Of a stretch of 64,000 nucleotides of DNA, positions 31,343-54,402 are shown piece after piece; position 1 is the stretch's first letter, and each line of letters begins with the position of its first letter. Position numbers and translations under genes: made by a program. The notes under the pieces are model-generated. The model was not told where the DNA came from, made no database searches, and saw only the letters and a list, made by a program, of their open reading frames with translations. Origin of the DNA: Escherichia coli (GTDB taxonomy: Bacteria > Pseudomonadota > Gammaproteobacteria > Enterobacterales > Enterobacteriaceae); the NCBI RefSeq assembly GCF_003334405.1, contig NZ_QOWM01000001.1, one strand, 5' to 3'.

Positions 31343-32377
31343 ATGGCTTACTCTGTTCAAAAGTCGCGCCTGGCAAAGGTTGCGGGTGTTTCGCTTGTTT
31401 TATTACTCGCTGCCTGTAGTTCTGACTCACGCTATAAGCGTCAGGTCAGTGGTGATGAAGCCTACCTGGAAGCGGCACCGCTTGCGGAGCTTCATGCCCC
31501 GGCTGGAATGATTTTGCCGGTGACCTCCGGTGATTATGCAATCCCGGTGACCAACGGTAGTGGTGCTGTCGGTAAGGCGCTGGACATTCGTCCACCAGCC
31601 CAGCCGCTGGCACTGGTTTCTGGCGCGCGTACCCAGTTCACGGGCGATACCGCTTCATTGCTGGTGGAAAATGGTCGTGGCAATACTCTGTGGCCGCAGG
31701 TGGTTAGCGTGCTGCAGGCGAAAAACTACACCATCACCCAACGTGATGATGCTGGTCAGACACTGACCACCGATTGGGTACAATGGAACCGTCTGGACGA
31801 AGACGAGCAGTATCGTGGTCGTTATCAAATCTCTGTTAAGCCGCAGGGTTATCAGCAGGCGGTTACGGTTAAACTGCTGAACCTGGAACAGGCGGGCAAA
31901 CCGGTTGCAGACGCGGCTTCCATGCAGCGTTACAGCACGGAGATGATGAACGTTATTTCCGCCGGTCTGGATAAATCTGCCACTGACGCCGCGAACGCTG
32001 CGCAAAATCGTGCCTCCACCACTATGGACGTACAAAGTGCAGCTGATGACACCGGTTTACCAATGCTGGTCGTACGCGGGCCGTTCAATGTGGTTTGGCA
32101 ACGTCTGCCAGCGGCGCTGGAAAAAGTGGGCATGAAAGTGACCGACAGCACCCGTTCGCAGGGCAACATGGCCGTAACTTATAAGCCGCTGTCTGACAGC
32201 GACTGGCAGGAACTGGGCGCGAGCGATCCAGGCCTGGCATCCGGTGACTATAAACTGCAGGTTGGCGATTTAGATAACCGCAGCAGCCTACAGTTCATCG
32301 ATCCGAAAGGTCATACTCTGACTCAGAGTCAGAACGACGCGCTGGTAGCTGTCTTCCAGGCTGCGTTTAGCAAGTAA
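31343..32377 (+). CDS. bamC: Outer-membrane lipoprotein BamC (NlpB)
   Basis: ATG at 31343 after an AGGGAG ribosome-binding site; lipoprotein signal with LLAACSS lipobox. Confidence 0.9.
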
Positions 32378-32383
32378 AAATAC

Positions 32384-32410
32384 AGGGCTGGAATCATCCG
32401 GCCCTTTTTT
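32384..32410 (+). terminator. Intrinsic terminator after bamC
   Basis: GGGCTGGA-atca-TCCGGCCC hairpin followed by TTTTTT. Confidence 0.65.
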
Positions 32411-32426
32411 CTGATATGATACGCAA
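32411..32426. promoter_or_regulatory. Candidate PurR operator upstream of purC
   Basis: ACGCAAACGTGTGCGT matches the PurR box consensus at 14 of 16 positions; lies about 165 bp upstream of the purC ATG, so its position relative to the transcription start is uncertain. Confidence 0.5.
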
Positions 32427-32482
32427 ACGTGTGCGTCTGCAGGAAAACGCGATTTTAGCGGTAATTCGCACGAAATTTGTTT

Positions 32483-32540
<58 letters not shown>

Positions 32541-32589
32541 AGACAGCAAAAGATTTTAAAACGTTAATTCACACCCAGGAGTGATAAAG

Positions 32590-33303
32590 ATGCAAAAGCA
32601 AGCTGAGTTGTATCGTGGTAAAGCGAAAACCGTATACAGCACGGAAAACCCGGACCTGTTGGTGCTCGAATTCCGCAATGATACGTCAGCAGGGGATGGC
32701 GCGCGCATTGAGCAGTTTGATCGCAAAGGTATGGTGAACAACAAGTTCAACTACTTCATTATGAGCAAACTGGCTGAAGCGGGTATCCCGACTCAAATGG
32801 AGCGTCTGCTCTCCGATACCGAATGTCTGGTGAAAAAGCTGGATATGGTGCCGGTTGAGTGTGTCGTGCGTAACCGTGCTGCTGGCTCTCTGGTGAAACG
32901 TCTTGGAATCGAAGAAGGTATTGAGCTGAACCCGCCGCTGTTCGATCTGTTCCTGAAAAACGACGCCATGCACGATCCGATGGTCAACGAATCTTACTGC
33001 GAAACCTTTGGCTGGGTGAGCAAAGAGAACCTGGCGCGTATGAAAGAGCTGACCTACAAAGCGAACGACGTGCTGAAAAAACTGTTCGATGATGCTGGTC
33101 TGATTCTGGTCGACTTCAAGCTGGAATTTGGTCTGTACAAAGGCGAAGTGGTACTGGGTGATGAGTTCTCCCCGGACGGTAGCCGCCTGTGGGACAAAGA
33201 AACGCTGGAGAAAATGGACAAAGACCGTTTCCGCCAGAGCCTCGGTGGCCTGATCGAAGCCTATGAAGCCGTCGCCCGCCGCCTGGGTGTACAGCTGGAC
33301 TGA
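32590..33303 (+). CDS. purC: SAICAR synthetase PurC
   Basis: 237 aa from the ATG at 32590 ([17 protein letters not shown]). Confidence 0.95.
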
Positions 33304-33470
33304 TTTTTCTGTTCATCATCTTGCCGTGCAGCTGGCACGGCAAGACAACCGCTCTCGGAATATATGCATTGAACGCTCATTCCTCCGCCATTTCATCCCG
33401 CTTTCCTGTGGTAATCTTCCTCTGAACCACCTACGATCATTTCTATAATGAATATATTGTTGAGGTATCT

Positions 33471-34334
33471 ATGCGTTGGCAAGGGCGACGTGAAAGTGAC
33501 AATGTTGAAGACAGGCGCAACAGCTCTGGTGGTCCATCTATGGGCGGTCCCGGTTTTCGCCTGCCAAGCGGTAAAGGCGGGCTGATTTTACTGATAGTCG
33601 TGCTGGTTGCAGGCTACTATGGTGTTGATTTAACCGGGTTGATGACCGGGCAGCCGGTTTCCCAACAACAATCAACGCGGTCAATTAGCCCAAATGAAGA
33701 CGAAGCCGCAAAATTCACCTCGGTGATTCTGGCAACCACGGAAGACACCTGGGGACAACAGTTCGAGAAGATGGGTAAGACCTATCAGCAACCGAAGCTG
33801 GTCATGTACCGTGGAATGACGCGTACCGGCTGCGGGGCGGGCCAGTCCATAATGGGGCCGTTCTATTGCCCGGCGGATGGCACGGTTTATATCGATCTCT
33901 CCTTCTATGATGACATGAAAGACAAACTTGGCGCGGATGGCGATTTTGCCCAGGGGTACGTTATCGCCCATGAAGTCGGTCATCATGTGCAGAAACTGTT
34001 AGGCATCGAGCCGAAAGTTCGTCAACTGCAACAAAACGCGACGCAGGCGGAAGTAAACCGCTTATCTGTGCGTATGGAACTCCAGGCCGACTGTTTTGCC
34101 GGTGTCTGGGGGCATAGTATGCAGCAGCAAGGCGTTCTGGAAACCGGCGATCTGGAAGAGGCGCTGAACGCGGCGCAGGCCATCGGCGATGACCGTTTAC
34201 AACAGCAAAGTCAGGGGCGAGTAGTACCAGACAGTTTCACTCATGGCACTTCTCAGCAACGCTACAGCTGGTTTAAACGTGGTTTCGACAGCGGCGATCC
34301 GGCACAATGCAATACTTTTGGTAAAAGCATTTAA
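33471..34334 (+). CDS. ypfJ: Putative zinc metallopeptidase YpfJ
   Basis: 287 aa; N-terminal hydrophobic segment; HEVGHH zincin motif. Confidence 0.8.
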
Positions 34335-54110: not shown

Positions 54111-54402
54111 TTTTTTTTAACTCTCACGCTTACCCTGAATATTCAGGGTAAGCAGTTTAGCTGCAATATATTAGTAAAGCTTATTACTGAGTTTGCGAAT
54201 AATAAAAAAAAGCAGTCTATATAATATCTCGATATTATTTTATTTATATTCATGCGTTGCATATGAAAGTTTATGCACCACAGCGAATATCTCTCCATTC
54301 TTAGTGATCTACCTCACCTTTTAAACGCGCTTGCCGAATTTTGTTATTTACTCTGACGAAAAATTGTCACGATACACGAAAGTTTTTCACAGGCGGCGAC
54401 TC

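Follow-up and report, generated by a model that had tools for sequence, protein, structure and literature searches.

The analyzed window, a 64-kb stretch of Escherichia coli DNA, carries the dapA-bamC-purC-ypfJ-tmcA region on the strand opposite to that of the K-12 reference; subtracting a window position from 2630208 gives the K-12 coordinate (NC_000913.3), a conversion that was checked base by base on the K-12 sequence. The purC coding sequence (32590–33303, plus strand), which encodes the 237-residue SAICAR synthetase, ends with a TGA stop codon at 33301–33303 and is followed on the same strand by ypfJ (33471–34334), encoding a zinc metallopeptidase of the KPN_02809 family. Both genes were assigned from the list of open reading frames and from RefSeq annotation, taken, in the case of purC, from E. 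coli records that match the sequence exactly or almost exactly. The 167-nt spacer between them (33304–33470) has the same sequence in K-12 MG1655, NCM3722, and other strains.

On the upstream side of purC, the published transcription start site (TSS; K-12 2597781) corresponds to A32427 and lies within the PurR box ACGCAAACGTGTGCGT (32421–32436), and the probable −10 element TATGAT (32415–32420) overlaps the T-tract of the dapA-bamC terminator (32384–32405). Promoter, operator, and upstream terminator are thus interleaved within 32384–32436. The 163-nt purC leader also contains a REP-like palindromic element at about 32470–32540, which gives a subthreshold match to the Rfam family naRNA4 (30.9 bits, E = 0.003).

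A perfect stem-loop without a U-tract follows purC

The purC-ypfJ spacer carries a stem-loop close to the purC stop codon. A first-pass annotation of this DNA had described it as a 10-bp stem, CTTGCCGTGC-AGCTG-GCACGGCAAG, located at 33320–33344 and starting 17 bp after the stop; the element is found exactly there, with 16 nt between the TGA and the stem. An eleventh pair, T33319:A33345, extends it to a perfect 11-bp stem with seven G-C pairs and a 5-nt loop (33319–33345, plus strand), composed of the left arm TCTTGCCGTGC (33319–33329), the loop AGCTG (33330–33334), and the right arm GCACGGCAAGA (33335–33345). With ten pairs the calculated ΔG is −17.6 kcal/mol, and the eleventh pair lowers it to −19.5 kcal/mol. 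The first 80 nt past the purC stop have a fold z-score of −3.55 relative to dinucleotide shuffles, and a 91-nt stretch has a z-score of −2.67. The 64-kb window has five places with a perfect stem of 10 bp or more and a loop of 3–9 nt, as against about 0.3 per shuffled window, which, taken together with the fold z-scores, indicates that the purC hairpin exceeds chance expectation.

The other perfect hairpins of this size are located at 3518–3546, 9978–10002, 39462–39493, and 54128–54153. Those at 9978–10002 and 39462–39493 are accompanied by T/A runs and resemble canonical or bidirectional terminators; those at 3518–3546 and 54128–54153 are devoid of T-runs, as is the purC hairpin.

The missing T-run had already been pointed out in the first-pass annotation, and the 8 nt past the stem, CAACCGCT, indeed include a single T, with none in the first seven positions. 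No T-run follows the stem on either strand, and a terminator acting on the opposite strand was rejected for this reason. A terminator scan made no call at the purC hairpin, yet it detected the bamC terminator at 32384–32405: the d'Aubenton-Carafa-type scores are −46 and +27, and the tail scores 0.04 and 4.18, respectively. The sequence preceding the stem, TTTTTCTGTTCATCA, is not A-rich, so that there is no upstream A-tract either. An Rfam 15 covariance-model scan of 32300–33600 (E ≤ 10) gave no match overlapping 33304–33470.

The main 3′ end of purC transcripts maps to the hairpin

Full-length, 5′-triphosphate-selected transcripts of E. coli K-12 have been sequenced by SMRT-Cappable-seq (Yan et al. 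2018, Nat Commun, PMC6131387). The M9_TTS row for b2476 (purC) in Supplementary Data 1 of that study (PMC6131387) spans NC_000913.3 2596861–2597781 on the reverse strand and is typed as "novelTTS". Upon coordinate conversion, the steady-state 3′ end of transcripts initiated at the purC promoter in M9 (K-12 2596861, minus strand) falls at 33347 on the plus strand of the window, 2 nt beyond the last base of the stem, with an ambiguity of 1–2 nt because the next base is an A and the method relies on poly(A) tailing. Among the 88 reads that start at the purC TSS, 58 (about 66%) end at the hairpin, eight end within 50 bp downstream of it, and 19 (about 22%) pass the site into ypfJ, the median read-through length given in the purC row being 1077 nt (PMC6131387). 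The same study reports a bicistronic purC-ypfJ variant from the purC TSS, as well as a "dapA-ypfJ operon" transcript (PMC6131387). This evidence comes from a single dataset and one growth condition (M9 minimal medium), and, as the method selects intact 5′ ends only, processed and terminated 3′ ends look alike in it.

The hairpin is thus the main 3′ end of purC, but a leaky one, with 58 reads ending against 19 passing and with the purC-ypfJ and dapA-ypfJ transcripts. The first-pass annotation had named 3′-end mapping as the way to check its proposal and unimpeded transcription into ypfJ, with no ends at the hairpin, as the outcome that would speak against it; the published end at 33347 is the opposite outcome. 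Its statement that the hairpin separates purC from ypfJ holds for the majority of transcripts and has to be restricted for the fraction that continues into ypfJ.

Expression of purC is repressed by PurR in rich medium. The accessible part of the Term-seq data published by Adams et al. 2021 lists the bamC terminator but neither of the genes purC and ypfJ, nor any position 25968xx. This absence may result from PurR repression of purC in LB or from detection thresholds, and we weigh it as weak negative evidence on account of that repression. Neither purC nor ypfJ is mentioned in the accessible supplements of Shashni 2014.

The downstream spacer is rich in C and overlaps the ypfJ promoters

The hairpin is followed on the plus strand by an untranslated tract rich in C and poor in G (33346–33445), with 34 C and 13 G per 100 nt; the first 78 nt past the hairpin contain 27 C and 11 G. 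The best 78-nt segment, 33367–33444, reaches a (C − G)/78 value of 0.244, which falls at the 99.9th percentile when all 78-nt windows of the 64 kb, from both strands, are ranked. Such an excess of C over G is as expected of a Rho loading site and makes the tract a candidate rut region.

The same tract overlaps the promoter region of ypfJ (33407–33445, plus strand), which contains two published TSSs. These are K-12 2596784 and 2596763, corresponding to G33424 and A33445 (PMC6131387, Supplementary Data 2), and the spacing suggests that TAATCT (33412–33417) and TACGAT (33432–33437) are the likely −10 elements. The ypfJ and tmcA genes are also served by promoters of their own, at distances of 77 and 98 nt past the hairpin. 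A motif, TATGGTAATC...CCTACGATC, which coincides with the two TSSs, is kept across the Enterobacteriaceae, and the ypfJ-proximal half of the spacer (33379–33470) is almost invariant in E. coli, with one variable site in 92 nt, the preceding segment 33346–33378 being polymorphic. Since the C-rich tract holds these conserved promoters, its composition may be constrained by them instead.

The stem is invariant within E. coli, but the segment can be replaced

BLAST searches with a 90-nt query found the spacer in 3,806 of 5,426 complete E. coli genomes, and the 41-nt hairpin region is matched with at most two mismatches in 3,801 of these 3,806. The hairpin is single-copy, with exactly one locus in each of the 3,806 genomes; the second "place" that BLAST returns per genome arises because the palindrome also matches in reverse orientation. 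A dispersed repeat was rejected on these grounds (one copy per genome with the 90-nt and 41-nt queries over the 5,426 genomes). We then compared 11 haplotypes chosen to span the range of identities, one of them belonging to the most divergent class. Within 33304–33378, none of the 22 stem positions varies, as against 15 of the 53 non-stem positions (Fisher p = 0.004). Variation inside the hairpin is confined to the loop, which reads AGCTG, TGCTG, TACTG, or TGCTA in these haplotypes, with the stem kept. A metagenomic E. coli-like allele (JFBN01314080.1; L094, 579–633) has a 1-nt insertion that enlarges the loop to the 6-nt AGGCTG, and its stem is also intact. In E. albertii, the top pair of the stem is changed from C-G to U-G, which pairs only in the plus-strand RNA. 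Covariation analysis of the stem found no compensatory double substitutions and this single G-U change only. The invariance of the stem amid a varying loop and varying flanks argues for selection on the stem, as judged from these alignments.

The hairpin-containing segment (33312–33378, plus strand) is itself replaceable and polymorphic among E. coli: it is missing, from 33312 to about 33365 or 33378, in about 1,600 (1,620) of the 5,426 complete genomes, or roughly 30%. The three such genomes that were inspected (L001, 5175–5990; L002; L012) carry in its place about 815 bp with a different hairpin and a vapB-vapC pair of toxin-antitoxin genes. The replacement hairpin has a 12-bp stem, ATTTAGCCGGAG-GGTA-CTCCGGCTAAAT, that lies 20 nt past the purC stop and is followed by vapB-vapC in all three. 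Plasmid-borne vapBC homologues are about 77% identical and cover the core of the cassette alone. No direct or inverted repeats were found flanking the cassette, and the purC hairpin sequence does not occur elsewhere in the 1,620 E. coli genomes without the hairpin allele. The hairpin allele is probably ancestral, because E. albertii carries it. The replacement also brings a hairpin right after purC, which fits a need for a terminal stem-loop at this position.

Enlarged spacers of 325–1,600 nt are seen between purC and ypfJ in several other genera (L039, 3215–4814; L031, L045, L052, L056, and L058), which suggests a recurrent insertion site for small cassettes.

Unrelated hairpins occupy the orthologous spacers of Enterobacterales

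The purC-ypfJ synteny is widespread in Enterobacterales, and nearly all of the 48 orthologous contexts compared have a GC-rich hairpin 0–42 nt past the purC stop. The sequences of these hairpins are unrelated between genera. In nearly all of the contexts, the 80 nt past the stop are much more stably folded than shuffled sequences, with a median z-score of −2.9 and z < −2 in 37 of the 48. A U-tract, by the strict gapless criterion of at least five T in the 8 nt past the stem, is present in 22 contexts, for instance in Cedecea, Shimwellia, Pluralibacter, Phytobacter, Serratia oryzae, and Erwinia persicina; the 26 others, a few of which are false negatives with bulged stems, include Escherichia, Citrobacter, Kluyvera, and Leclercia. 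As unrelated hairpins are found nearly everywhere and the U-tract in about half of the contexts, the conserved feature is a terminal RNA hairpin, while the U-tract comes and goes.

A PurR-box-like 16-mer (consensus ACGCAA[AT]CG[AT]TTACGT) was observed shortly past the purC stop in 21 of 80 loci (L027, L030, L031, L035, L036, L038, L040, L043, L046, L048–L051, L053, L056, L058, L061, L063, L064, L071, and L079), mostly at 3 nt and in a few loci at 6–27 nt from the stop. The taxa belong to several families and include Cedecea, Mangrovibacter, Shimwellia, Pectobacterium, Brenneria, Photorhabdus, Yersinia, Budvicia, Proteus, and Rahnella; the 16-mer is absent past the purC stop of E. coli. It could act as a PurR roadblock or as a regulator of the downstream gene.

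A probable route to the purC 3′ end and its alternatives

We consider it fairly probable that the purC mRNA ends in this stem-loop as a result of factor-dependent (Rho-dependent) termination within or beyond the spacer and subsequent exonuclease trimming back to the protective hairpin. E. coli RNA polymerase requires a U-rich RNA:DNA hybrid for intrinsic release, and intrinsic 3′ ends normally lie 7–9 nt past the stem. Because the U-tract is missing, the polymerase would most likely not release at the hairpin and would run on into the 127-nt untranslated C-rich, G-poor spacer. Rho could load there, as the base composition suggests, and would stop transcription at scattered downstream positions. 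The 3′-to-5′ exonucleases PNPase and RNase II would then shorten the tail until they met the stable stem, which would block them, thereby fixing the 3′ end and protecting the purC mRNA. Transcripts that escape would constitute a purine-regulated read-through into ypfJ-tmcA. The first-pass annotation had proposed an RNA-stabilizing 3′ structure or a Rho-dependent site instead of a classical terminator, and this proposal is supported by the lack of a U-tract, by a 3′ end close against the stem, and by the C>G spacer.

The hairpin could alternatively release RNA polymerase by itself, at or just past the stem and without a U-tract, perhaps with the help of NusA/NusG or of a pause, the +2 end then being a true or slightly nibbled terminus. 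Such a noncanonical intrinsic terminator would account for a precise 3′ end shared by about 66% of the reads; its stem matches real terminators in stability, and it is located where relatives have hairpin-plus-U-tract terminators. Direct intrinsic termination is nevertheless rather unlikely because the RNA has no U in the first 7 nt past the stem (one T in 8 nt of the DNA), where the polymerase requires a U-rich hybrid, and because only 2 nt, instead of the normal 7–9 nt, separate the stem from the 3′ end; the terminator score of −46 points in the same direction. The hairpin might also be a processing stop, the purC-ypfJ(-tmcA) transcript being cut by an endonuclease in the spacer and trimmed to the hairpin, which would then be an intra-operon element of differential stability. 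The purC-ypfJ bicistronic and dapA-ypfJ transcripts exist, and the 5′-end selection of SMRT-Cappable-seq cannot separate processed from terminated ends, both of which suit this scheme. We judge it improbable, however, as only 19 of the 88 reads extend past the hairpin, conserved promoters serve ypfJ separately, and an untranslated, C-rich spacer such as this one is a textbook Rho substrate. We also know of no cleavage site in the purC-ypfJ spacer.

A role at the DNA level, with the 11-bp inverted repeat bound by a protein or targeted by recombination or insertion in connection with the vapBC polymorphism, would be in line with a palindrome that is perfect, invariant in E. coli, and placed inside the segment exchanged for the cassette. 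Orthologous positions, however, are unrelated in sequence and share just the potential to form an RNA hairpin, the G-U pair of E. albertii keeps the RNA pairing and breaks the DNA symmetry, neither direct nor inverted repeats flank the cassette, and the hairpin is found nowhere else in E. coli genomes, which together make this role very improbable. Chance is the explanation to which we give the least credence: compensatory covariation and an Rfam family match are indeed absent, which would suit a functionless palindrome, but chance would produce only about 0.3 such hairpins in 64 kb, a 3′ end maps to the base of this one, its stem is invariant amid polymorphic flanks, and hairpins are positionally conserved across Enterobacterales.

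Beyond the favored scheme of Rho-dependent termination and trimming, one may speculate that the hairpin and the C-rich spacer form a conditional valve, in which Rho or the growth state tunes read-through from purC into ypfJ-tmcA-ypfH, and that the spacer is perhaps also a hot spot of cassette exchange where the 3′ hairpin is swapped with a vapBC module. We regard this extension as a long shot. If the valve did operate, a tRNA-modification gene would be coupled to the purine supply, purC being induced by purine starvation through PurR.

Comparison with known termination and 3′-end elements

The purC hairpin shares with canonical intrinsic terminators, such as the adjacent dapA-bamC terminator (32384–32405) and those that follow purC in Cedecea, Shimwellia, Pluralibacter, Phytobacter, and Erwinia persicina, a GC-rich stem of similar size and energy and, for the latter, a similar position past the purC stop. 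It differs from them by the lack of a U-tract, by its score (−46 as against +27 for the bamC terminator), and by a 3′ end 2 nt instead of 7–9 nt past the stem; among the features that define such terminators, it thus has the GC-rich stem of about 5–14 bp with a short loop but neither the adjoining U-tract of 7–8 nt nor a 3′ end within one. Like the REP/BIME palindromes, which stabilize upstream mRNA, it is an intergenic palindrome proposed to form an exonuclease-resistant 3′ hairpin, but it has no REP consensus and belongs to no repeat family, being present in one copy per genome. A transcription-factor operator palindrome was also considered and rejected, since the sequence is not conserved and the hairpins of other genera are unrelated to it.

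The closest likeness is with the Rho-dependent E. coli transcripts of Dar & Sorek 2018, the accessible part of which describes a precise steady-state end right past a stable stem-loop devoid of a U-tail, an enrichment of C over G downstream, and trimming to the stem by PNPase and RNase II. At purC, a stable stem-loop of the dimensions seen in intrinsic terminators likewise lies directly upstream of a precise 3′ end, has neither a U-rich tail nor an upstream A-tract, and is followed by an excess of C over G from right past the hairpin. The match concerns the 3′ end and these features, and Rho and the exonucleases would have the corresponding roles at purC. In its accessible part, the same study also predicts easy evolutionary switching through the gain or loss of U's (Dar & Sorek 2018), and the presence of a U-tract in about half of the orthologous contexts, and its absence from the other half, correspond to the predicted toggling between intrinsic and Rho-dependent termination.

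The purC 3′ end is already public, as an unlabelled "novelTTS" row of a supplementary table; our results assign to it a concrete element and a probable mechanism, with little import beyond annotation. They also provide a clean comparative case, over about 48 Enterobacterales, of the terminal hairpin of one gene gaining and losing its U-tract, and the partial read-through from purC into ypfJ is relevant to any use of the spacer as an insulated boundary and to studies of ypfJ and tmcA expression. In the reading that best accommodates the data, the purC hairpin is an unremarkable member of a class already described, the protective 3′ stem-loop of a factor-terminated transcript.
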